Assembly (NCBI GenBank): GCA_964458425.1 | Contig: CAYWIW010000001.1 | Location: forward strand, 94,275-158,274 | From: an uncultured Muribaculaceae bacterium | GTDB taxonomy: Bacteria > Bacteroidota > Bacteroidia > Bacteroidales > UBA932 | DNA: 64,000 nucleotides | Reading direction: 5' to 3' | Part shown: piece after piece, positions 2,837 to 16,307 of the stretch | Layout: every line of letters begins with the position of its first letter | Position numbering within the stretch: position 1 is the first letter of the stretch | Translations under genes and position numbers: made by a program | Notes under the pieces: model-generated | What the model saw: the letters and a program-made list of their open reading frames with translations, nothing else | What the model was told of the DNA's origin: nothing | Database searches by the model: none

Positions 2837-4156
2837 ATGGTAAAAGATATGAAACAAGTATTCACACTCATCACAGGGTTGTCCTGCCTTTCCACGCTTC
2901 TCGCGGGGTGCTATGGAATCGATGACACACAGAAAGAGTGGACAGACAAGGGCGAGAAAACATACGTCGGCAAAATCGACTCACTGCGAGTCCGTTCCGG
3001 AATGAACAGGGTCGAAATCGTCGGGAACACCAAATATCTGAGAACTGCGACCGAGTGCTCCGTCAGCTATGATGACACGACTGTCACATTCAGCATCACC
3101 GACATCGTAGGAGATGACGGCAAGGCCAGGATGGTCATCGACAAACTGGACGGCGGAAGCTACTATTTCAACGTGATGACATACGACAAGGACGGGAACA
3201 AATCCGTTCCGTCGGAGGTCTACGGTGTCGCATACGGTGTCAATGACATCCTGAAGGAGACTCCCAAAAGGGTGGCTTCGTTCGTGCAGAAATTCGACGG
3301 CACCGTTGACGTGGAATGGAACAGGGCTTCCACCACTTATTTCAGACTGGCCTGGGAAGACGAGGATGGCGTCAGGCAGGAAATGGACATCACCGGCTCT
3401 CCATCGAAGACAAATATCAAATCCTGGAAAAAGGGAGGGAGGGTGTCAGTCCAGACCTTCATAATGAAGAACAAGACCGACCTCGACCTTCTCGCCCTCG
3501 AACCTTTGGAGTACACGTTCCCGACCGAGATCGAGGAATCCATCCCTCGGTTCGGCGATGGTTCCTATATGAACCTTGGAGCCTACTCCGACTGGGATAT
3601 GGGCGAGGAGTTCACCATCGAGCTTAGAGCCAGATACACCGAGATCGCAGGAGGCGACCAGTGCGTGATTTCGTGCGAATCCGACGGCCCGCCGGCAGGT
3701 ATGATGCTCAGAAGCAGCGGAAGCGCCCTTCAGTTCTACATCGGAGACGGCGGATGGAGCGGAATCTCATTCTCTCCTTTATCGACAGGAATATGGTATG
3801 ACATCGCCATCACCTACAAGGCCAATGCCGGCATAGAGCTCTACATCAACGGAGAGCTCAAGGCAAGCGGAAGATGCGGAAGGATGAACACTCCTACATC
3901 AAGGTTGCAGATCGGCACATCACCTTACTATTCCTCAAGGTATATGCGAGGTGACATACAGCACGTTTCTGTCTGGAAAGAAGTCCGGTCCGCCGACCAG
4001 ATAAAATCCGACATCGGACAGAGCTATGCCTTCAAAGGCAACGAGGACGGATTGAAAGCCTACTGGCCACTGACGGTGAACTGGGGAGACGAGATTCCTG
4101 ACCAGACAGGAAAACACATCGCAGAGTTCGGGAATGTCATATGGAACAGCAAATAA
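2837..4156 (+). CDS. DUF4998-type lipoprotein with C-terminal LamG/concanavalin-like domain (surface glycan-binding protein)
   Basis: Lipobox LAGC; GEKTYVGKIDSLRVRSGMNRV; LamG-like FTIELRARY, WYDIAITY, LYINGEL, LQIG, GDIQHVSVW. Confidence 0.75.
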   Translation: MVKDMKQVFTLITGLSCLSTLLAGCYGIDDTQKEWTDKGEKTYVGKIDSLRVRSGMNRVEIVGNTKYLRTATECSVSYDDTTVTFSITDIVGDDGKARMVIDKLDGGSYYFNVMTYDKDGNKSVPSEVYGVAYGVNDILKETPKRVASFVQKFDGTVDVEWNRASTTYFRLAWEDEDGVRQEMDITGSPSKTNIKSWKKGGRVSVQTFIMKNKTDLDLLALEPLEYTFPTEIEESIPRFGDGSYMNLGAYSDWDMGEEFTIELRARYTEIAGGDQCVISCESDGPPAGMMLRSSGSALQFYIGDGGWSGISFSPLSTGIWYDIAITYKANAGIELYINGELKASGRCGRMNTPTSRLQIGTSPYYSSRYMRGDIQHVSVWKEVRSADQIKSDIGQSYAFKGNEDGLKAYWPLTVNWGDEIPDQTGKHIAEFGNVIWNSK

Positions 4157-4226: not shown

Positions 4227-4257
4227 TTTGATTTATGTAAAAATATGCCTACTTTTG
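4227..4257 (+). promoter_or_regulatory. Bacteroidetes sigma70 promoter of the gntR-MFS operon
   Basis: TTTG (4227-4230), 19-nt spacer, TACTTTTG (4250-4257); matches the established TTTG / TAnnTTTG consensus. Confidence 0.75.
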
Positions 4258-4268
4258 TTTGAACATAT
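4253..4268. promoter_or_regulatory. Candidate GntR operator 1 (TTTTGT-TTGA-ACATAT)
   Basis: One of three copies of TGTWTRAACATAT; overlaps the -7 element of the gntR promoter. Confidence 0.65.
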
Positions 4269-4298
4269 TATCAAACATATTCTTAGCGACCCACGGCA

Positions 4299-5030
4299 AT
4301 GAAACTTGAATTAGACCATAATTCCTCGACTCCTCTGCACCAACAGGCCGAAGACATCCTGCGCAAAATGATCCAGGAAGAAGACTACAGAAACGGGAAA
4401 CTGCTTCCGAATGAGATAGAGCTTTCAAAACAGCTGAAGATATCCCGCAACACCCTTAGGCAGGCCATCAACAGGCTTGTATTCGAAGGACTTCTCATAC
4501 GCAAGAAAGGCTACGGGACCTGCGTGGCGCTTCAGGACGTGATGAGCAACGCCCGCAACTGGATGAGCTTCTCACAGGAGATGGCCTCGCAAGGAATGAC
4601 GGTACAGAACTTTGAACTGCACATAAGCTGGAAACTTCCGTCCAAGGAAGCCGCCGATTTCTTCGGTGTCCCCCACGGCAAGAAACTGCTGTGCCTTGAG
4701 AGACTCCGCGGCAAGCCGGATCTTCCCTTCGTGTTCTTCATATCATATTTCAACCCCTCCATTCCGATGTCGGTGTCAGAGGATATGAGCAAGCCTCTCT
4801 ACGAGATTCTGCGCAACAGGTACGGCATCAACGTCAAAACCTCAAAAGAACAGATTTCCGCCAAAGGGGCAAGCCCGGAGCTTTCAGACAAGTTAAGCAT
4901 CTCGGCAGGAGACCCCATCCTGGTCAGAAAACGCTTTGTCCTCGACGACAACAACAACCCGGTGGAATACAACATCGGCTATTACAGAGCCGACTCGTTC
5001 ACTTACTCAATAGAATGCACAAACGAATAA
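4299..5030 (+). CDS. GntR family transcriptional regulator (HutC subfamily, UTRA domain)
   Basis: N-terminal wHTH LLPNEIELSKQLKISRNTLRQAINRLVFEGLLIRKKGYGT; C-terminal UTRA-like ERLR, PLYEILR, PVEYNIGYYRAD. Confidence 0.95.
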   Translation: MKLELDHNSSTPLHQQAEDILRKMIQEEDYRNGKLLPNEIELSKQLKISRNTLRQAINRLVFEGLLIRKKGYGTCVALQDVMSNARNWMSFSQEMASQGMTVQNFELHISWKLPSKEAADFFGVPHGKKLLCLERLRGKPDLPFVFFISYFNPSIPMSVSEDMSKPLYEILRNRYGINVKTSKEQISAKGASPELSDKLSISAGDPILVRKRFVLDDNNNPVEYNIGYYRADSFTYSIECTNE

Positions 5031-5046
5031 CGGACATACATAAACT

Positions 5047-6198
5047 ATGAACAAAAGTTTGACGAAGGCTCTTCCCGTACTTTTCGGCTTCTTTGTGATG
5101 GGCTTCTGCGATGTCGTGGGAATCGCCACAAGCTACGTAAAGCAGGATTTCAACCTGAGCGAAAGCCTGGCCGGATTAATTCCGTCGATGGTCTTCATCT
5201 GGTTTCTCCTGCTTTCAATCCCCGTCGCCGTCGCGATGAACAAGGCCGGAAGGAAGAGTATGGTACAGATCAGCAACATCATCACCTTCGCCGGAATGAT
5301 GCTGCCTTTCATCAGCTACAACTTCGCCACGTGCCTGCTTGCCTTTGTGTTACTTGGCATAGGAAACACGATCCTGCAGGTCTCATTGAACCCGCTGCTT
5401 ACCAATGTCGTTACAGGGAAAGCCCTTACAAGCTCTCTCACCGCAGGACAGGTGATCAAGGCCGTCTCATCTTTCTGCGGGCCGTTCATCGCCGCATTCG
5501 CCGCCGGGGCCCTCGGCAACTGGAAATACCTGTTCCCGATCTTTGCGGCCATAACCCTGCTCTCAGGAATATGGCTGCTCGCCACCCCGATCAGGGAGAG
5601 CCGTCCGGAGAACAACACATCGTCTCCGGGAGCCGTATTCGGACTATTGAAAGACAGGCGGATACTTCTTCTTTTCCTCGGGATTTTCTTCATCGTAGGA
5701 GTTGACGTAGGAGTGAACACGGTCTCACCGAAGCTGCTCATCGAAAGAGCCGGATGGGCCGTCGAAAAAGCCGGAATGGCCTCCAGCGTTTACTTCGTCT
5801 GCCGGACAATCGGAGCGCTCATCGGTTCTGTGGCCCTCGCCAAGGTCAACGAAATCAAATATTTCAGGTACAACATCATAGCTGCGACCATATCGCTCAC
5901 CCTTCTCTTTTTCCTGAAGGGAACGACAGCTATGCTCGCATTGATAGGGCTTCTCGGGTTCCTGTGTTCAAGCGTATTCTCGATTATATATTCATCGGCG
6001 CTGAAAGAGCGCCCGGAAAAAGCAAACGAAATCTCGGGACTGATGATCACCGGAGTCTCCGGAGGAGCGGCCATACCTCCTTGTATGGGCATTCTTGCAG
6101 ACATTACCGGAAGCCAGTCCGGCTCGCTGGCCGTCATCGGGCTGTGCCTCCTCTACCTTGTCTGGTGCTCACTGTATCTTCGTACCGAAAAGGCATAG
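5047..6198 (+). CDS. MFS sugar transporter (FucP/GluP-like)
   Basis: About 12 hydrophobic segments; GIGNTILQVSLNPLL and YVGVDVGV-type FucP-family signatures. Confidence 0.85.
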   Translation: MNKSLTKALPVLFGFFVMGFCDVVGIATSYVKQDFNLSESLAGLIPSMVFIWFLLLSIPVAVAMNKAGRKSMVQISNIITFAGMMLPFISYNFATCLLAFVLLGIGNTILQVSLNPLLTNVVTGKALTSSLTAGQVIKAVSSFCGPFIAAFAAGALGNWKYLFPIFAAITLLSGIWLLATPIRESRPENNTSSPGAVFGLLKDRRILLLFLGIFFIVGVDVGVNTVSPKLLIERAGWAVEKAGMASSVYFVCRTIGALIGSVALAKVNEIKYFRYNIIAATISLTLLFFLKGTTAMLALIGLLGFLCSSVFSIIYSSALKERPEKANEISGLMITGVSGGAAIPPCMGILADITGSQSGSLAVIGLCLLYLVWCSLYLRTEKA

Positions 6199-6208
6199 GC
6201 TCTCGGAA

Positions 6209-7975
6209 TCACTTCATAAAAGCCTTGACCATCATTATCGGCTTTCCCGAATTGTTGATTATGCGATATGAACCTGCGGCCGCAGAGATGACCATCGATT
6301 CGGCATAGGTAAGCCTGAATGTCATCCCGCCTTCAGTGACAACAGTTGCGGAAGAACCCTCCACAAGATTAAGCGCGTGGAACTTCCCTTCCGTCCTCAC
6401 TTCGACCTCAGTCTCAACGACGTAGCGATGCACGTCATAGGAATGATTCTTATGCGTAGGAATATGCCACAGTTCCCAGCCTCCGCCTTTCTCCATCAAA
6501 TAAGGATGGGAGACGAACTCCTCGGCGACGCGGCTTCCCTTGCGGTCGAAGTACAGGTTATCCACCGCTCTTTGTATGTTCAGAGGACGAGGCCGGCCGT
6601 CAAGGTCGAGCGACATCCAGTCGTACATCTTGAACGTGAATATGTAAGGAGTAGTACTGATCTCCAGGACCAGATTATTCCTGCCCGAACTGTGAAGAGT
6701 GCCTGGAGGGATGAGATACAGGCCGTGCCTTACCGACGGCTCGGAGTTAACATATTTCCGCACGTCAAGCGGTGTCCCGTTCCTGTGGCTTTCCTCAAGA
6801 GCGGCCTTGAACTCTTCGGGAACGACATCATCCTTGAACCCGAGGAAGACCTCCGCACCCGGCTTGTTGTCAAGAATATAATACGTCTCCTCCTGAGTCA
6901 GGACCTCACCGAAATTCTTCTGTATGTACTCCTTGCGTGGATGGCACTGAATAGAAAGATTCCCGCCGTCGAAATTGTCAAGATAATCGAGCCGGATAGG
7001 GAACTCATCACCATACTCCGAATAACATCCACTGCCTACCACGTCTTCTCCCGCCTCATACATAATGGTGTCGAAAGACAACTCGAGCATTTTGTCTCCG
7101 CCGGCGAATATAATGCCGTTCTCGGGAACGATAAGCTCGAATGACCAGGCATAGTTAGGGACATCTTGCGGGAGCTCGTTTATGAATTCCTTAATCCGCT
7201 GCCCTCCCCAGGAGCCAGGCTCAAACCAAGGACGGACTCTGAATCCATTTCTTGCAAGCCTGTCCAGGCCGGTACGGACAACATCACCCTCAGCCCAAGT
7301 GATTTCAGCAAGCCGCTGCGCGTCAACGAAAACATCGACCTGCGGAAGCAACGACTTCTTATGCCTGTTCAGAACGACCCAGTCGATAAAGTAGAAACGC
7401 TTGTACATCCTTTTCGGAGTGTCCGGACCGGAGGCTCCAAGATTCCTGACGCTCCCGGCCCTGGATCTGAACTGGATCTCATTCTTCGGAATATCAAGAT
7501 AAACCAGAGTCCCGCCCCATCCGGCAAGGGAAGCGCCGGAGCCATAGATGACATTAAGTTCAACCGTCCTGTCCGGCCTTATCGCAGCCAGCCGGTCCTC
7601 ATCGAAAAAATCCGGCAAAGACAAGTCCGTCCGGAATCCGAATATCGGGTCATCACCTCCTAAATACGGCTCTATCAGCCTGTCAACCTCCTGCGGAGAT
7701 TTCATAGCGGCTTCCACATTCCAGAAAAGAGTCTTGACACCGGCGTCGGCCAGCGCGTCGGCCAGGCGCGAGATGAAGCCGTCAAAACTCACGCCGACAT
7801 ATCCATCGACAACCACGGTTCCGCTACCGGAAAGACGGCGCGCCAGCTCATCGAAGCCAGACGAGACTGTCCCTTCTCCAAGATTATGAACCGGATAGAT
7901 ATCGTATTCTTCCGCACCGGGAGACACTTTGTCCACGGGAATAATATACTGGGTTGTCTTTCTAATCTCTGACAT
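6209..7975 (-). CDS. Class I mannose-6-phosphate isomerase-like cupin protein with long N-terminal extension
   Basis: PWFEPGSWGGQ, NLSIQCHP, ETYYIL, PPGTLHS, LEIS, YDW motifs. Start moved to MSEIRK (7975) to avoid overlap with the ROK gene. Confidence 0.8.
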   Translation of the reverse strand: MSEIRKTTQYIIPVDKVSPGAEEYDIYPVHNLGEGTVSSGFDELARRLSGSGTVVVDGYVGVSFDGFISRLADALADAGVKTLFWNVEAAMKSPQEVDRLIEPYLGGDDPIFGFRTDLSLPDFFDEDRLAAIRPDRTVELNVIYGSGASLAGWGGTLVYLDIPKNEIQFRSRAGSVRNLGASGPDTPKRMYKRFYFIDWVVLNRHKKSLLPQVDVFVDAQRLAEITWAEGDVVRTGLDRLARNGFRVRPWFEPGSWGGQRIKEFINELPQDVPNYAWSFELIVPENGIIFAGGDKMLELSFDTIMYEAGEDVVGSGCYSEYGDEFPIRLDYLDNFDGGNLSIQCHPRKEYIQKNFGEVLTQEETYYILDNKPGAEVFLGFKDDVVPEEFKAALEESHRNGTPLDVRKYVNSEPSVRHGLYLIPPGTLHSSGRNNLVLEISTTPYIFTFKMYDWMSLDLDGRPRPLNIQRAVDNLYFDRKGSRVAEEFVSHPYLMEKGGGWELWHIPTHKNHSYDVHRYVVETEVEVRTEGKFHALNLVEGSSATVVTEGGMTFRLTYAESMVISAAAGSYRIINNSGKPIMMVKAFMK

Positions 7976-7985
7976 ATTGATAGTT

Positions 7986-8891
7986 TTATTGGAATAATGA
8001 TGCGGCGCCCAACATAGCCGCATTGTCTATTAATGAGGACACCCTGACCTTTGCGGTCATTCCTCCTTCCGACACAACGCTCTCGAGCGCGGGAGAAAAC
8101 AACGGAAAAGATTTGGAAATATTGCCGCCGAGGACCACTGAAGAACATCCGAAACGCTCCACCAAAGGAATCAGGAAAGCTCCGAGGCGCAAACCGTATT
8201 CTTCAAACACCTGCCTTGCGGCCCTGTCTTCAGCGCACCTGTCCGCCACATCCTTCGCCCCGGACAACACCTCACCGGCCAGTTCCGAATAGCGGCGCAC
8301 TATCCAGCGTGTGGAAAAAGCGTCATCAGCGGTTCCACCCTCGAAAGGCAGACAGTAAACCCAACCGTTCGGCGGAACATCGGGCGAATCCGTAACAAGC
8401 TTTCCGCCAGCGACAAATCCTGAGCCGACTCCTGTTCCAAGGGTAATGGCCAACAGTCTGTCATCACCACGAGCCTCGCCATAAAAGGCCTCGCCGAAAG
8501 CGAAAGCCGACGCATCGTTGACAAAACGCAGTTCCATATCCCGCGACGGAAGCATCCGCAAGACGGACTTCCCCACATCCAGACCGTAGACGGACTCATA
8601 TTTGCCGACTCCGCTTATCTTGGAGATTCCTTTTTCATAATCAAACGGCCCGGGGAAAGCAAAGCCTACACCTTTGACTTCACCGCCAAACGAATCAATC
8701 GTGGAACGGACATTGGAGGCCCAGGCCGAAACTATCTCATACGCTCCGGCGCGGCTGTCAACCGGAGTTGTCACGGGGACAGTACACAAAGCTCCGGAGG
8801 CAACTTCAACAACAGCCGAACTCAGATGAGAGCCGCCCACATCGACTCCAACCACATAGCTGTCTTTCACAGCTGGCATCTTCATATTCAA
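7986..8891 (-). CDS. ROK family sugar kinase
   Basis: VVGVDVGGS, FAFPGPFDY, VNDASAFA.GE, ITLGTGVGSGF, VVLGGNIS. Confidence 0.92.
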   Translation of the reverse strand: MNMKMPAVKDSYVVGVDVGGSHLSSAVVEVASGALCTVPVTTPVDSRAGAYEIVSAWASNVRSTIDSFGGEVKGVGFAFPGPFDYEKGISKISGVGKYESVYGLDVGKSVLRMLPSRDMELRFVNDASAFAFGEAFYGEARGDDRLLAITLGTGVGSGFVAGGKLVTDSPDVPPNGWVYCLPFEGGTADDAFSTRWIVRRYSELAGEVLSGAKDVADRCAEDRAARQVFEEYGLRLGAFLIPLVERFGCSSVVLGGNISKSFPLFSPALESVVSEGGMTAKVRVSSLIDNAAMLGAASLFQ

Positions 8892-8901
8892 ATCTTAAAT
8901 T

Positions 8902-8917
8902 ATATGTATGAACATAT
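8902..8917. promoter_or_regulatory. Candidate GntR operator 2 (ATATGT-ATGA-ACATAT, perfect palindromic arms)
   Basis: Lies just downstream of the minus-strand -7 element TATCTTTG (8927-8934) serving the ROK-isomerase operon. Confidence 0.7.
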
Positions 8918-9047
8918 CTAACAAGACAAAGATAAGACAATAATTTCAATAATACAATTGTTTAAGAAAAACATAATGAAAAGACAGCTCTGAACCAACT
9001 AAAAGCGAAATTTCCGGCAATCCGGGTCATTGATGTGACAACCGCCA

Positions 9048-9063
9048 TATTGTATAAACATAT
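9048..9063. promoter_or_regulatory. Candidate GntR operator 3 (TATTGT-ATAA-ACATAT)
   Basis: Third copy of the motif, upstream of the GH78 gene. Its core TGTATAAACA fits the HutC-type GT-N-TA-N-AC pattern. Confidence 0.65.
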
Positions 9064-9186
9064 AATCACACTCTCGTCTACGGCACAATGCCGGAACCTT
9101 GGCTTTCAAAAGACACCCGCAAAAGAATCGTCCTTGCCCCTCCGGAAGAGTCCGTTCTCTCAGGATTTTTCATTATGTTTGTGAAT

Positions 9187-10929
9187 ATGTTACGAAAGAT
9201 GTTCATTCTCACGGCACTGCTGATGGCGGCAGTGTCGGTTGCGGGACAGGAGGCAAGGTCTGCCGGTCCCGCCGAAACCCGACGGAAGGACTCCGAGTTT
9301 GTAAGTGACTACCTCACTCCTACACGGATAATTCTTTCAAAGGGCAACGTGACCGGAGCCGAGAAACTCCTGAAGCCGTATCGCGGGCAGGTTTCCACGA
9401 ACGAACCCGAGGTCTGCGTATTCAAAAACGACAAGAGCGGCGTAAGTTCGATTCTGCTGGATTTCGGAAAAGAAATCCAGGGGGGCATACAGATTGTCAG
9501 GGCGATGTCCGGGGACAAGTCCGCGGCACGATTCCGCGTCTGCTTCGGCGAATCCGTAAGCGAGGCGGTGAGCAGCGTTGACGAGAGCGGCACCACGGCC
9601 ACCAACGAGCACTCAGTCAGAGACTTCGAGATTTCCGTCCCTTGGCTGGGAGCCGCCGAGTACGGCAACACCGGATTCCGGTTTGTCCGCCTTGACCTGC
9701 TTGGCGATGACGCAAAAGCATCACTCGTGACCGTAAGGGCCATCTCCCGCTACCGCGACATTCCATACGTAGGACAGTTCAAATGCAGCGATGAAAGGCT
9801 GAACCAAATCTGGAACACAGGAGCTTACACGGTACATCTGAATATGCAGGACTACCTTTGGGACGGAATCAAACGCGACAGGCTCGTGTGGATCGGGGAT
9901 ATGCACCCGGAGGTTATGGCGGTGAACACTGTCTTCGGCGACCACAAGGTCGTGCAGAAGAGCCTCGACTACGTACGCGAGAGCACCCCGGCGACAGTTT
10001 GGATGAATGGAATATGCTCATATTCATTATGGTGGATCATCATTCACCACCATCTGTACGAGTATTACGGAGACCTCGGCTACCTAAGGGAGCAGCACAC
10101 ATATCTGACAGACCTGCTGCACACGGTAATGTCCAACTTCGACGGCTCAAAAGAGAACTTCAGGAGCGGCAGGTTCATAGACTGGCCGACTTCCGAGAAA
10201 CCGGAAGCCATCCACGCCGGACTACAGGCTCTTTCAGTAAGGGCGATGGAAGCCGGAGCGCGGATGGCCCGATGGCTCGATGACAAGAAACTCGAGGAGG
10301 AGTGTTCCGCCGCGGCCGCCAGACTGCGGGAGTACAGACCGCCGGTCACTTCAAGCAAACAGGCCGCCGCCTTGCTTTACCTTGAGGATCTTGCGGACAA
10401 GGAGCAGGCCCGCAAGGTCATCCTGTCCGGCGGAGCAAACGGGTTCTCCTCGTTTATGGGCTATTATATGCTTGAGGCCCTAGCCAAAAGCGGTGATTAT
10501 GACGAGGCTATGAAGATGATTTCCGACTATTGGGGCGCGATGCTCGATCTCGGAGCCACGACATTCTGGGAAGACTTCGACTATTCAAAGGCGGCGGAGG
10601 CCGGAAGAATCGACGAGATTGTGCCGGAAGGCAAATACGACATACACGCTGACGGAGGAGCCTATTGCTATGTCGGACTCCGCCACAGTTTCTGCCACGG
10701 ATGGGCCTCCGGTCCTACTGTATGGCTAAGTTCCCACGTGCTCGGGATCGAACCTGCGGAACCCGGATTCAGGAAAGTGAGAATAAACCCGCATCTCGGC
10801 TCCCTTGAATGGGCGGAGGGTTCCTATCCGACCCCTTACGGCCCGATAACAGTGTCGCACCGCCGCGCCGCGAACGGCACAGTCAAATCAGACATCCGCC
10901 TGCCGAAAGGCGTGAGGCTCGTGAAATAA
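9187..10929 (+). CDS. Alpha-L-rhamnosidase-like glycoside hydrolase (GH78), secreted
   Basis: Signal peptide; ILLDFGKE, GFRFVR, WDGIKRDRLVWIGD, GATTFWE, SFCHGWASGP, LGIEPAEPGF, PTPYGPI. Start taken at MLRKMF (9187). Confidence 0.9.
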   Translation: MLRKMFILTALLMAAVSVAGQEARSAGPAETRRKDSEFVSDYLTPTRIILSKGNVTGAEKLLKPYRGQVSTNEPEVCVFKNDKSGVSSILLDFGKEIQGGIQIVRAMSGDKSAARFRVCFGESVSEAVSSVDESGTTATNEHSVRDFEISVPWLGAAEYGNTGFRFVRLDLLGDDAKASLVTVRAISRYRDIPYVGQFKCSDERLNQIWNTGAYTVHLNMQDYLWDGIKRDRLVWIGDMHPEVMAVNTVFGDHKVVQKSLDYVRESTPATVWMNGICSYSLWWIIIHHHLYEYYGDLGYLREQHTYLTDLLHTVMSNFDGSKENFRSGRFIDWPTSEKPEAIHAGLQALSVRAMEAGARMARWLDDKKLEEECSAAAARLREYRPPVTSSKQAAALLYLEDLADKEQARKVILSGGANGFSSFMGYYMLEALAKSGDYDEAMKMISDYWGAMLDLGATTFWEDFDYSKAAEAGRIDEIVPEGKYDIHADGGAYCYVGLRHSFCHGWASGPTVWLSSHVLGIEPAEPGFRKVRINPHLGSLEWAEGSYPTPYGPITVSHRRAANGTVKSDIRLPKGVRLVK

Positions 10930-13153: not shown

Positions 13154-13993
13154 TTACAACATAATTTCAACAGTGCCAACAAAATCGGCCGGGCCGGTAA
13201 GCCAAATGTCTCTGACAGACAACCCGGATCCGGCGCATTCGGGGACAAAATCAACCGAAAGCGATGCTATAGCCGCCTTGACCGCACAGGAGACCCTTCC
13301 ATCCGGACATTCCCTTCCGGCCAGACCTTGTGAATATGCGGCCACAGCCGAAGCGACGATTCCGGTACCGCAGGCCAGGGTCTCATCCTCGACACCTTTT
13401 TCAAATGTACGGATGTCAAGTATGACATCGCCATCCTCCGGCACAGGCTCGACGAAATTCACATTGGTCCCGACCGGAGCAAAGCGCCTGTCGCTCCGAA
13501 GAGCGCGGCCTTCTTCAATGACCGGATACCCTCCAAGTCCGCTGACAAATTTGACAAGATGACGGGTGCCGGTGTCGAGAAAGCAGGCATTGTCTTCAGG
13601 AAAGTATTCAATTTCAGACACATCCCTCATTTTCAGACGTATTGTTCTCCCAGTATGTTCCGACGGAAGCATCTCCGCCTGATGAAGGCCGTCGGGGGCC
13701 TCGAAAAAGACCGGATTCCCGCGGCTGACTATTCCGAGATCGGCGGCAAAAGCCACAATGCAGCGTCCTCCGTTGCCGCACATCATCCCGCCGCTGCCAT
13801 CCGGATTGTAGAAAACCATCCTGAAGGCTGACGAATCACTGTTTTCAAGAAGCATCACACCGTCGGCTCCAAAGCCGGTATGGCGAGCGCACAGATGACG
13901 GACCCGCTCCGGTGTCAGGGTCACGGCACCGGAACGGTTGTCGGCCAGCAGAAAATCATTGCCGGCTCCGTGGTATTTATAGAATTTGTACAT
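13154..13993 (-). CDS. dapF: Diaminopimelate epimerase
   Basis: KYHGAGNDF, GFGADG, MCGNGGRC, DTGTRH, TNVNF, RTFEKGVEDETLACGTG (both catalytic Cys present). Confidence 0.97.
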   Translation of the reverse strand: MYKFYKYHGAGNDFLLADNRSGAVTLTPERVRHLCARHTGFGADGVMLLENSDSSAFRMVFYNPDGSGGMMCGNGGRCIVAFAADLGIVSRGNPVFFEAPDGLHQAEMLPSEHTGRTIRLKMRDVSEIEYFPEDNACFLDTGTRHLVKFVSGLGGYPVIEEGRALRSDRRFAPVGTNVNFVEPVPEDGDVILDIRTFEKGVEDETLACGTGIVASAVAAYSQGLAGRECPDGRVSCAVKAAIASLSVDFVPECAGSGLSVRDIWLTGPADFVGTVEIML

Positions 13994-14002
13994 AACGGAT
14001 TC

Positions 14003-14764
14003 TTACCGGAGCAAGGTTTCCAACTCGACGGAGGCATCGGTCCTGCCGTCACGGTATTTGACTATGACCGGTGTGTAAAGATGAATCCCGGCATCCTTGC
14101 CGAAACCGGAAGCCATCGGACGGCTGCCCGCTACCACGACCGCACCCGGAGGCACGACAGTCTGCCCGGAAGCGCTGCGAGGGACATACTCTCCGGATGT
14201 GGAGTCATAGAGAGCCGTCCCTTTTGTCAGGATCACTCCGGAAGCCAGCACAGCTCCTTCTCCCACAATCGTACCCTCGTATATTCCGCAATTACCACCG
14301 ATGAAAGCATTGTCCTCGACAATCACCGGCAAGGCTCCGGCAGGCTCAAGCACACCGCCGATCTGGGCAGCGGCGGAGATGTGGACATTCTTTCCCACCT
14401 GAGCGCAGGAACCGACAAGAGCGTGGGAGTCGATCATCGTTCCCTCATCCACATACGCCCCGATGTTGACATAGGACGGCGGCATCATAATGACAGAAGG
14501 TGCAAGATAGGAGCCGCAACGAACGCTGCTCCCGCCCGGAACGATACGTACCCTGTCCTCCGGTGAGAACCTATGGAGCGGAAGAGTGTCCTTGTCGAAA
14601 AATGAGTATCCCCCCTCACTCAAATCCTTGAGCTTCCCGACACGGAAACCCTCCAGAATCGCCTCCTTGACCCACGCATTTACCGTCCAGACTCCGTCAA
14701 TCTTCTCGGCCACACGGACTTCGCCGGATTCAAGCCGGCTGCAAAGCATCTGAAAGTCCATCAT
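14003..14764 (-). CDS. dapD: 2,3,4,5-tetrahydropyridine-2,6-dicarboxylate N-succinyltransferase
   Basis: [48 protein letters not shown] hexapeptide repeats. Confidence 0.93.
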
Positions 14765-15630
14765 ACCCCAAGCCCCTCCATAGCTTTTCTCATAGCCTCG
14801 AAAGTAGAAGGGACAGCCTCAGTGAGAGGCAGGCGCATCCCGGCTGCGCAGAGGCCAAGGATGTCAAGCCCGGCCTTCACAGGAATCGGATTGCTTTCCA
14901 CAAAGCAACCGCGGAACAAAGGGTCAAGACGGTCGTTGAGTTTTGCCGCCGTCTCCAGATCCCCGTCAGCCAAGGCACCGACCAGTCTCACCATCAATTC
15001 AGGCGCGATGTTGGAAGCCACGCTGATCACTCCGTCTCCGCCACGCTCCATAATCTGCAATGTCTGGTCATCGTTGCCGCTCAGCACACTGAAGCCCTCC
15101 GGTTTCCCGGAGAGTATCCTGCCAATCTGCTCCAGATTGCCGGAAGCCTCCTTGACGGCGATCACATTCGGAATCTCAGCCAGGCGAAGAGCCGTCTCCG
15201 CAGACATATTCACACCTGTCCTGCCCGGCACATTGTAGGCCACGATGCCTTTGCCGGTGGCGGCCGCGACAGTCCTGAAATATTCAACGATTCCCTCCTG
15301 TGTCGGCTTGTTGTAGTAAGGCACAACAATCAGGAAGGCATCCGGCCCGCAAGCCTCCAGAAGACGGATGTTGCGTATCGTGGCCGCCGGAGAGTTAGTC
15401 CCCGCACCGGCAACCACCGGCCTGTCAGGGCAAAGCTCCCTTGTCATCCGGAGAAGCGCAAGCTTCTCATCGTCGTCCAGACACGGAGTCTCAGCCGTGG
15501 TCCCAAGCGGAACCAGAAAATGCACACCGGCCTCAACCTGTCTTATTACCAGCGCCCTGTACGCATCATAATCGACCTTCCCGTCCTTGAACGGAGTCAC
15601 AAGCGCCGTTCCGCAGCCCTGTAGTATCAT
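14761..15630 (-). CDS. dapA: 4-hydroxy-tetrahydrodipicolinate synthase
   Basis: [38 protein letters not shown]. Confidence 0.97.
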
Positions 15631-16307
15631 ATTCCTTCCTCCTTAAAAAACAGTTCCTTGAATTCGTGGACACCTTGCAGGTTCTCGGTCATAAGCGCCG
15701 CCACGACCGCCCCCTCGGCAAAACCTTTTCTGGAAAAAGCCTCGTGTTCCACGGTGATCCTGTCATTCTCTCCCTCAAAACCGACCGTATGGATTCCGGC
15801 CACCTCACCGACCCTGACGGAAGCCACATCCGGACTTGCGTCCATATTCTCCGCAACCACGGAAGCCAACGACTTCGCGGTTCCGCTCGGAGCGTCCAAT
15901 TTATGAATATGATGCTTCTCGACAATGTACGGGGAATAACCTCCCGCCTTGCCCAGATATTTGGCTATCAATCCGACAGCCGCCGAAAGCACATTCACTC
16001 CCACTGAGTAGTTGGACGAGTGGATCATCGGAGTACCCTGCCTGTTGAAACAGTCCGTCACCTCATCCTTGATGTCGTTCCAGCCGGTCGTACCTATCAC
16101 CGCGGCCTTGAAGTTCTCTGCGATGAACCTGTAATTGCTACGGAAAGCCTCAGGTGTCGTAAAGTCAATGCAGACACATTCCCTGGCAAGAGTCCTGTCA
16201 AACGACGAGATGTCCTCGCTGCATCCGGCGCACTCGATCCCACGGCTTTCCAGCACCTGCTCCACGTTATGCCCCATACGGCCATAGCCGCTTATAACCA
16301 CTTTCAT
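15627..16307 (-). CDS. dapB: 4-hydroxy-tetrahydrodipicolinate reductase
   Basis: GYGRMG, IDFTTP, IGTTGW, SNYSVG, EKHHIHKLDAPSGTA, HEAFSRKGFAEGA. Confidence 0.96.
   Translation of the reverse strand: MKVVISGYGRMGHNVEQVLESRGIECAGCSEDISSFDRTLARECVCIDFTTPEAFRSNYRFIAENFKAAVIGTTGWNDIKDEVTDCFNRQGTPMIHSSNYSVGVNVLSAAVGLIAKYLGKAGGYSPYIVEKHHIHKLDAPSGTAKSLASVVAENMDASPDVASVRVGEVAGIHTVGFEGENDRITVEHEAFSRKGFAEGAVVAALMTENLQGVHEFKELFFKEEGI

Follow-up and report, generated by a model that had tools for sequence, protein, structure and literature searches.

Predicted operators of a HutC-type GntR regulator in a mannose/alpha-mannoside island of an uncultured gut Cryptobacteroides

We analyzed a 64,000-nucleotide stretch of DNA (the window) from an uncultured gut Cryptobacteroides (GenBank assembly GCA_964458425.1, contig CAYWIW010000001.1, forward-strand positions 94,275 to 158,274), in which a palindromic motif, TGTWTRAACATAT, occurs three times around a gene for a GntR-family regulator. 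The three copies are very likely operators of the GntR/HutC repressor encoded at 4299 to 5030, which, judged from sequence comparison, would be the equivalent of ManR (BT2103) of Bacteroides thetaiotaomicron and would govern an island for mannose and alpha-mannosides; we refer to its gene as manR. The regulon is larger than the window shows, since it takes in a SusC/SusD polysaccharide utilization locus (PUL) and a gene of glycoside hydrolase family GH92, with operators of their own, and two surface-protein-like genes.

A pattern search of the window found TGTWTRAACATAT on the plus strand at 4256 to 4268, 8905 to 8917, and 9051 to 9063, the three places named in the original prediction for this DNA. 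None of 100 dinucleotide shuffles matched, and these three copies are the only matches in the entire assembly (2.56 Mb in 48 contigs). Because the pattern had itself been derived from the window copies, an independent test was made with a symmetrized 16-bp matrix. Only non-coding sites were used for training, taken from loci in which the regulator shares no more than 77% identity with the window GntR (81 sites, 53 of them distinct). Among the 81 sites, conservation of TGT and of ACA is 98% or more and the spacer reads W-Y-R-W, which gives a 16-bp palindrome, ATATGT-WYRW-ACATAT, with a GT-N4-AC core as in HutC.

The five best matches in a genome-wide scan with this matrix, a check proposed with the original prediction, score 20.1 to 25.6 bits and all fall in one stretch of ~13 kb. 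Three are the window copies (beginning at 8902, 4253, and 9048); the other two, C1:90682 and C1:90251, are located 3.6 and 4.0 kb before the window begins and precede the susC and GH92 alpha-mannosidase genes, respectively. By chance, 0.7 matches of at least 20 bits are expected per genome, as estimated from third-order Markov simulations. Scan and simulations alike speak against the motif being frequent in random AT-rich DNA, a concern raised in advance. The top site of the genome, at 8902 to 8917, is the copy that had been picked out beforehand as the best, and its arms are perfect (ATATGT-ATGA-ACATAT; 25.6 bits). The next-ranked matches (C2:201991, C1:189086, and C15:17171) are inside open reading frames (ORFs) and at chance level. 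We rejected the other matrix matches in the genome as regulon sites, because they are within ORFs or weak and hence attributable to chance. A weak match of 14.2 bits, TTTTGTTTATACGTAT at C2:78300-78315, is intergenic, ~30 nt upstream of a gene for a 299-amino-acid protein; it too is at chance level. We conclude that the observation of a three-copy motif is real and far beyond chance.

The product of manR (plus strand, 243 amino acids) combines a GntR winged helix-turn-helix domain (PF00392; E value, 1.7e-16) with a UTRA domain (PF07702; E value, 7.8e-29). This is the HutC architecture, as had been proposed for the gene at 4299. The protein is similar over its full length to the NagR/YvoA and DasR structures (E value of ~1e-23 to 4u0v/2wv0), and no other protein of the genome has a UTRA domain. 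The HutC consensus, NyGTMTAKACNy, has 4 nt between GT and AC (PMC4494728), and the window motif, with its GT-N4-AC core, fits this operator type, in agreement with the earlier description of it as a HutC palindrome. The NagR-DNA structure shows Arg48 reading the conserved G, Arg38 a second G, and Gly69 as the anchor of the wing (PMC4333415). R50, the equivalent of Arg48, is invariant in 74/74 orthologues, and G71, the equivalent of Gly69, is found in 64/74. The position of Arg38 is always occupied by V, I, M, or L in the 74 orthologues, and an aliphatic residue there fits T rather than G at operator position -5 (a TGT arm as opposed to GGT). We assign the motif to this GntR because the genome encodes no other UTRA regulator, because the motif fits the HutC core, and because the G-reading Arg is invariant. 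R135 and R137, which correspond to the NagR phosphate ligands Arg133 and Arg135, are likewise invariant in 74/74 orthologues, and the equivalent of NagR Thr90 is Ser or Thr. Retention of the phosphate-binding Arg residues points to a phosphosugar effector, and mannose-6-phosphate is the candidate because it would be both the product of the ROK-family kinase and the substrate of the mannose-6-phosphate isomerase (PMI) encoded in the island. From these residues and genes, we conclude that the effector is probably a phosphosugar, mannose-6-phosphate.

The positions of the individual sites relative to promoters are those expected for a repressor. Promoters were recognized by an exact match to the Bacteroidetes -7 box, TAnnTTTG. 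Site 1 (TTTTGTTTGAACATAT, 4253 to 4268; 21.4 bits) has its center 38 nt before the start of manR and is predicted to mediate autoregulation; it overlaps the TTTG of the manR -7 box (TACTTTTG, 4250 to 4257, plus strand). An extra half-site, AACATAT (4274 to 4280), is located 12 bp past the right half of site 1; flanking half-boxes 7 to 12 nt from the site center have been described for GntR-family sites (PMC4494728). Site 2 (ATATGTATGAACATAT) is centered 25 nt upstream of the ROK gene start and begins 10 nt downstream of the -7 box of the ROK-PMI operon (TATCTTTG, 8927 to 8934, minus strand). Site 3 (TATTGTATAAACATAT, 9048 to 9063; 20.1 bits) lies within the island DNA, at a distance of 146 bp from site 2. 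Outside the window, an operator begins 2 nt past the susC -7 box (TATATTTG), and a further, weaker site (16.6 bits) lies midway in the divergent region between GH92 and susC; the operator set of the island comprises six sites, three of them at promoters. Since the operators of manR, susC, and ROK overlap or directly follow the -7 boxes, the geometry is that of a repressor, acting by promoter occlusion or by a block to early elongation, and we infer that these promoters are repressed. The original prediction placed the copies at the 5′ ends of three transcription units. This holds for manR, where the site overlaps the box, and for ROK, where it begins 10 nt past the box, but not for site 3, which is 111 nt before the own -7 box of the neighboring gene of family GH78. 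A scan for sigma-70 promoters and terminators showed no enrichment and was set aside as inappropriate for Bacteroidetes promoters.

We determined the conservation of the motif in a one-genome-per-species scan, which yielded 80 loci with relatives of the regulator (54 to 99% identical). These loci come from Cryptobacteroides, Alistipes, Muribaculaceae, Dysgonomonas, Tannerellaceae, Bacteroides, Pedobacter, Flavobacterium, Reichenbachiella, Fulvivirga, and others and span four classes in which the motif recurs: Bacteroidia, Sphingobacteriia, Flavobacteriia, and Cytophagia. The palindrome is seen upstream of most gntR relatives, in forms such as ATATGTATGAACATAT, ATATGTATATACATAT, and ATTTGTTCGAACATAT. 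In the 80 loci together with the window's own locus (~1.03 Mb), 135 sites reach 15 bits or more and 119 of them are non-coding, whereas the non-coding share of the DNA is only ~10%. Upstream sites were counted if they scored at least 15 bits and lay within 350 bp of a gene start; such sites precede gntR in 47 of 72 cases (65%), PMI-like genes in 16 of 28 (57%), GH92 in 18 of 36 (50%), GH38-like genes in 5 of 7, and susC in 6 of 26, compared with 18 of 410 other genes (4%). Autoregulation had been anticipated, and conservation of the motif upstream of orthologues had been proposed as a check; the ~80 Bacteroidota loci show the conservation and support autoregulation. Gene clustering identified conserved neighbors of the regulator: GH92 (39 genes in 32 loci), MFS permeases (35), long PMI-like genes (30), SusC (29), ROK (13), SusD, and GH38-like genes; in 35 loci, GntR and MFS genes form a conserved pair. 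Among 300 genomes sampled from the order, the regulator is present in 19 others. Two of these (G158 and G112) have strict-pattern matches at 78 and 111 nt, respectively, from the start of manR, and two more (G126 and G229) have such matches on the contig of manR, 2 to 14 kb away. Taken alone, the strict 14-mer discriminates weakly (10 of 19 genomes with the regulator versus ~25% of the rest, with the reversed control also frequent), and its profile over the 300 genomes is informative only through co-localization with manR.

Two groups of loci have layouts of their own. In genomes of Reichenbachiella and Roseivirgaceae, full-strength ManR-type sites (ATATGTTCATACATAT at L063:7807-7822 and GTATGTTCATACATAT at L069:6611-6626) overlap the start of a gene for an extracytoplasmic function (ECF) sigma factor beside the regulator, which suggests a repressor-to-sigma cascade in these two loci. 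In a locus of the B. finegoldii/congonensis type (L128:1-10732), the regulator orthologue is divergent from a PUL with the order SusC-SusD-GH18-two BT_3987-like_N proteins-GH3. The GH18 protein is a BT1044-like endo-beta-N-acetylglucosaminidase, the PUL is of the N-glycan type, and the intergenic region between the regulator and the SusC-SusD-GH18 PUL has matching sites, including CTATGTATGAACATTC. No PMI or ROK gene was found within a 20.7-kb stretch of this locus (10 kb on each side of the regulator gene).

The limits of the island, and with them the place of the GH78 gene, are set by comparison with a related genome (~80% DNA identity). A contig of this relative is collinear with the window genome up to -6531 and again from 9165, ~100 bp past site 3. 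The 15.7-kb island between these points (window -6530 to 9164; C1:87745-103438) contains all six sites, site 3 among them, and is extra DNA relative to that genome, either gained here or lost there; no integrase or repeat was seen at its ends. The relative (GH78 83% identical) has the gene order ClpB...LptE-sigma54 activator-TPR gene-GH78-rpsP-rimM-dap genes, with no island and no site. In the original prediction, GH78 was a member of the regulon. We consider it unlikely that the same repressor also controls GH78 via site 3, with a substrate that is perhaps no rhamnoside. It is true that site 3 lies on the GH78 side of the ROK-GH78 gap, 124 nt before the probable start codon of GH78, that no terminator-like element separates the two, and that a promoter like that of GH92 at the equivalent position of a related locus (L014; see below) could fire through site 3 into GH78. 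However, an exact -7 box is absent from the plus strand between 8918 and 9047, and a site ~125 nt upstream of the transcription start is in no repressing position. The GH78 -7 box (TATGTTTG, 9174 to 9181) and the sequence that follows it, up to the signal peptide, are conserved in relatives without the island. Two of these relatives, L120 and L123, lack the motif, and no site was found within ~1.5 kb upstream in ~25 GH78 orthologue loci of the order. In another relative, GH78 is preceded by a second, full-length GH78 gene. We conclude that GH78 is most likely a backbone gene with its own promoter, outside the regulon.

The backbone DNA with the GH78-like gene covers 9165 to 10929 (plus strand). 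The most likely start of GH78 is the ATG at 9187 (MLRKMFILTALLMAAVSVAG..., beginning a signal peptide), 5 nt past the -7 box, which would make the mRNA nearly leaderless; the longest ORFs overstate both this gene (9088-10929) and the PMI-like gene (6209-8023). A specificity other than rhamnose, which had been suggested for the protein, is baseless: it is clearly GH78-like, and its best solved relative is 3cih, deposited as a putative alpha-rhamnosidase (E value, 2e-48). A non-rhamnosidase GH78 was rejected on this match and on the synteny with rpsP or with a second GH78 gene in relatives.

Site 3 itself is part of the island. In L014, whose regulator is 81% identical, two sites 143 bp apart lie between ROK and GH92, the second centered 13 nt upstream of GH92. 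When the ROK-side spacers of the window and L014 are compared, only the two sites align (146 versus 143 bp spacing). The shared paired-site layout indicates that site 3 is conserved as an element of the island: either it pairs with site 2 as an auxiliary operator, or it is the leftover operator of a GH92 gene that is absent here.

We also considered whether the sites might be bound by a global Crp-like regulator of the BT4338 type and not by the local GntR. The Bacteroides Crp-like 22-bp palindrome, TATGTTnTAnAACATA, shares the outer TATGT...ACATA arms and regulates sugar-utilization genes, with many targets per genome (PMC3878776). Its spacing is TGT-N6-ACA, though, in contrast to TGT-N4-ACA in all training and window sites, and a global regulator should have sites genome-wide, whereas the five strong matches sit in one island. 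Moreover, the sites co-occur with the gntR orthologue across four Bacteroidota classes, and no sites occupy that position in relatives that lack the island. A Crp-like binder is thus very improbable. That the sites are a chance AT-rich or promoter-element similarity, with a left half, TTTGT, like the TTTG of the -7 box, is close to inconceivable: the left arm does coincide with a TAnnTTTG box at the manR promoter and in many relatives, and that overlap alone would give some conservation, but the right arm, ACATAT, is equally conserved without being a promoter element, sites also lie away from -7 boxes (ROK, susC, and site 3), a genome with thousands of promoters has only five strong matches, in one island, and nothing but the two operators is retained where the ROK-side intergenic regions have otherwise diverged.

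Several points weigh against reading the copies as operators of a ManR equivalent. The closest named Bacteroides relative of the regulator, a protein of the B. finegoldii/congonensis cluster encoded beside the SusC-SusD-GH18 PUL described above, shares 59% identity with it across the full length, and orthology with BT2103 is a prediction. The -7 boxes used here are consensus matches, and the transcription start positions are accordingly predicted ones. At GH92, 69 nt separate the site from the start codon and there is no exact -7 box nearby, and 35% of gntR orthologues lack a site of 15 bits or more in the 350 bp before the gene. In addition, a transcript from the island may read through site 3 into GH78.

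The gene content of the island is that of a route for alpha-mannosides. Upstream of the window are a GH92 alpha-mannosidase gene (C1:87824-90190, minus strand; GH92 domains) and, just before the window start, susC (C1:90736-93912, plus strand; Plug and CarboxypepD_reg domains). The susD-like gene (C1:93925-95850, or window -349 to 1576, plus strand; Pfam SusD_RagB and SusD-like_3) reaches into the window with its 3′ part, at 1 to 1576. An adjacent susC/susD pair with a linked glycoside hydrolase, GH92, defines the locus as a PUL. Two PUL surface-protein-like genes follow on the plus strand, at 1595 to 2818 (Pfam DUF4959/DUF5126/DUF5000) and at 2837 to 4156 (Pfam DUF4998 and Laminin_G_3). Beyond manR, and separated from it by a 16-nt gap, the second gene of the manR operon encodes a GluP/FucP-like MFS sugar permease (5047 to 6198, plus strand; Pfam MFS_1, with weak NCBIfam gluP/fucP matches). 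The ROK-PMI operon on the minus strand has as its first gene a ROK-family sugar kinase (7986 to 8885; Pfam ROK, no helix-turn-helix domain), which has the DVGGS (DxGGS) and GTGVG (GTGxG) ATP-binding motifs. A cysteine-rich zinc motif is typical of ROK kinases; this protein is without one. Downstream of GH78, dapF, dapD, dapA, and dapB are located at 13154-16307 on the minus strand, and they are syntenic in the relatives L120 and L125.

The second gene of the ROK-PMI operon encodes a long PMI-like mannose-6-phosphate isomerase (6209 to 7975, minus strand; 588 amino acids). Its family (575 to 612 amino acids) has no Pfam or NCBIfam match. The protein matches the B. subtilis PMI 1qwr with an E value of 1e-11 by sequence and 5e-17 by profile. 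Its AlphaFold2 model has a predicted local distance difference test score (pLDDT) of 90, and a Foldseek comparison to 1qwr gave a target-normalized template modeling (TM) score of 0.85. All 21 family members compared have Q343, H345, E363, and H428, which we take to be the metal ligands of a type-I PMI. The start is most likely M17 of the 604-amino-acid ORF (7975), in line with the gene calls of close relatives; from this start, the gene no longer overlaps ROK. The N-terminal domain of ~240 amino acids is conserved and confidently modeled (pLDDT of ~90). It has a weak likeness to P-loop kinases (PanK, UCK, PRK, and a “fructose transport system kinase”; TM, 0.43 to 0.5) and no Walker A lysine, and its invariant residues include GxGA (145 to 148), D161, E166, R170, and K192-R193. 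Pedobacter loci carry the gene without an adjacent ROK kinase, and the N-terminal domain might therefore supply a second activity.

On the strength of these gene families and sites, we propose the following model. A dimer of the regulator would recognize the 16-bp palindrome and control the one 15.7-kb island: the GH92 gene; susC, susD, and the two surface-protein-like genes; the manR-MFS operon; and the ROK-PMI operon. The original prediction had the GntR controlling a transporter, a kinase, an isomerase, and GH78; the MFS permease, the ROK kinase, and the PMI-like enzyme stay in the set, and GH78 leaves it. The bound repressor would block RNA polymerase or early elongation. GH92 would free mannose from alpha-mannosides, SusC/D and the MFS permease would import it, the ROK kinase would phosphorylate it, and the PMI-like enzyme would convert the product to fructose-6-phosphate. 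A sugar of the mannose kind had been guessed at the outset, and the GH92 domains, the PMI fold, and the ROK kinase agree with it. Binding of the phosphosugar, most likely mannose-6-phosphate, to the UTRA domain would release the repressor.

A much broader interpretation is that an ancient, phylum-wide, one-component HutC switch, sensing cytoplasmic mannose-6-phosphate, directly gates outer membrane SusC/D for alpha-mannosides and N-glycans in at least four Bacteroidota classes. It would in some cases act via an ECF sigma factor with an operator at its gene start and would be a general mode of PUL control beside hybrid two-component systems (HTCS), SusR, and ECF/anti-sigma pairs, with the backbone GH78 gene brought under mannose control through the orphan site 3. 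We regard this whole as doubtful and put it forward tentatively.

The analysis provides a clean operator model, a 16-bp palindrome, for a mannose/alpha-mannoside island of an uncultured gut bacterium, and the matrix can be used for regulon prediction in metagenome-assembled genomes. It shows the spread of the ManR-type regulon, with the same motif, over Bacteroidia, Sphingobacteriia, Flavobacteriia, and Cytophagia. It also supports annotating Pfam-invisible PMI-like proteins, and the GH92, GH38, and SusC/D genes linked to them, as mannoside utilization genes. Adjacency can mislead: an operator stands next to GH78 only because the island abuts GH78. Beyond a prediction made in 2013, we found no experimental work in the searchable literature on BT2103/ManR or on a GntR regulator with GH92, and the sites are ready probes for electrophoretic mobility shift assays on a regulator without a bench study there.

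Among regulators studied in other bacteria, NagR/YvoA of B. subtilis and DasR of Streptomyces share with the window GntR the domain architecture and a palindromic operator with a GT-N4-AC core. The G-reading Arg, the wing Gly, and the phosphate-binding Arg-x-Arg with the helix N termini are also conserved. NagR represses by binding its operators, and a sugar phosphate relieves the repression (PMC4333415). The systems differ in the operator arms (ATATGT here, TGGT in NagR/DasR), in the residue equivalent to NagR Arg38, which is aliphatic here, and in the target, mannose and alpha-mannosides here as opposed to GlcNAc; in addition, the regulator described here would control outer membrane SusC/D proteins. 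AusR of the Zobellia galactanivorans alginate PUL is likewise a cytoplasmic one-component GntR repressor of a Bacteroidota PUL and not an HTCS, ECF-sigma, or SusR regulator (PMC7641319). Its substrate, alginate, is different, and the likeness drawn here concerns the type of regulator.

The nearest known system is ManR itself. Ravcheev et al. in 2013 predicted, by comparative genomics, that the GntR-family regulator ManR (BT2103) of B. thetaiotaomicron acts on “mannose, mannosides” (PMC3878776; RegPrecise). Its predicted regulon consists of manR, pmi-manK, GH92, manP (FucP family), susC/susD, two “chitobiase-like” genes, a further GH92, a predicted beta-xylosidase, and GH38, and regulons of this type were reported in 3 of the 11 Bacteroides genomes then analyzed (PMC3878776). 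The island described here differs in its host, Cryptobacteroides, in being smaller (one GH92, no GH38, and no “chitobiase-like” genes), and in having PMI and ROK as separate genes where B. thetaiotaomicron has a fused pmi-manK. Both systems would place a PMI, a ROK mannose kinase, an MFS/FucP permease, GH92, and SusC/SusD under a local GntR, and both encode a complete route from extracellular alpha-mannosides to fructose-6-phosphate. We conclude that, by gene content, the regulon matches the ManR (BT2103) kind, a regulon type already predicted in 2013.

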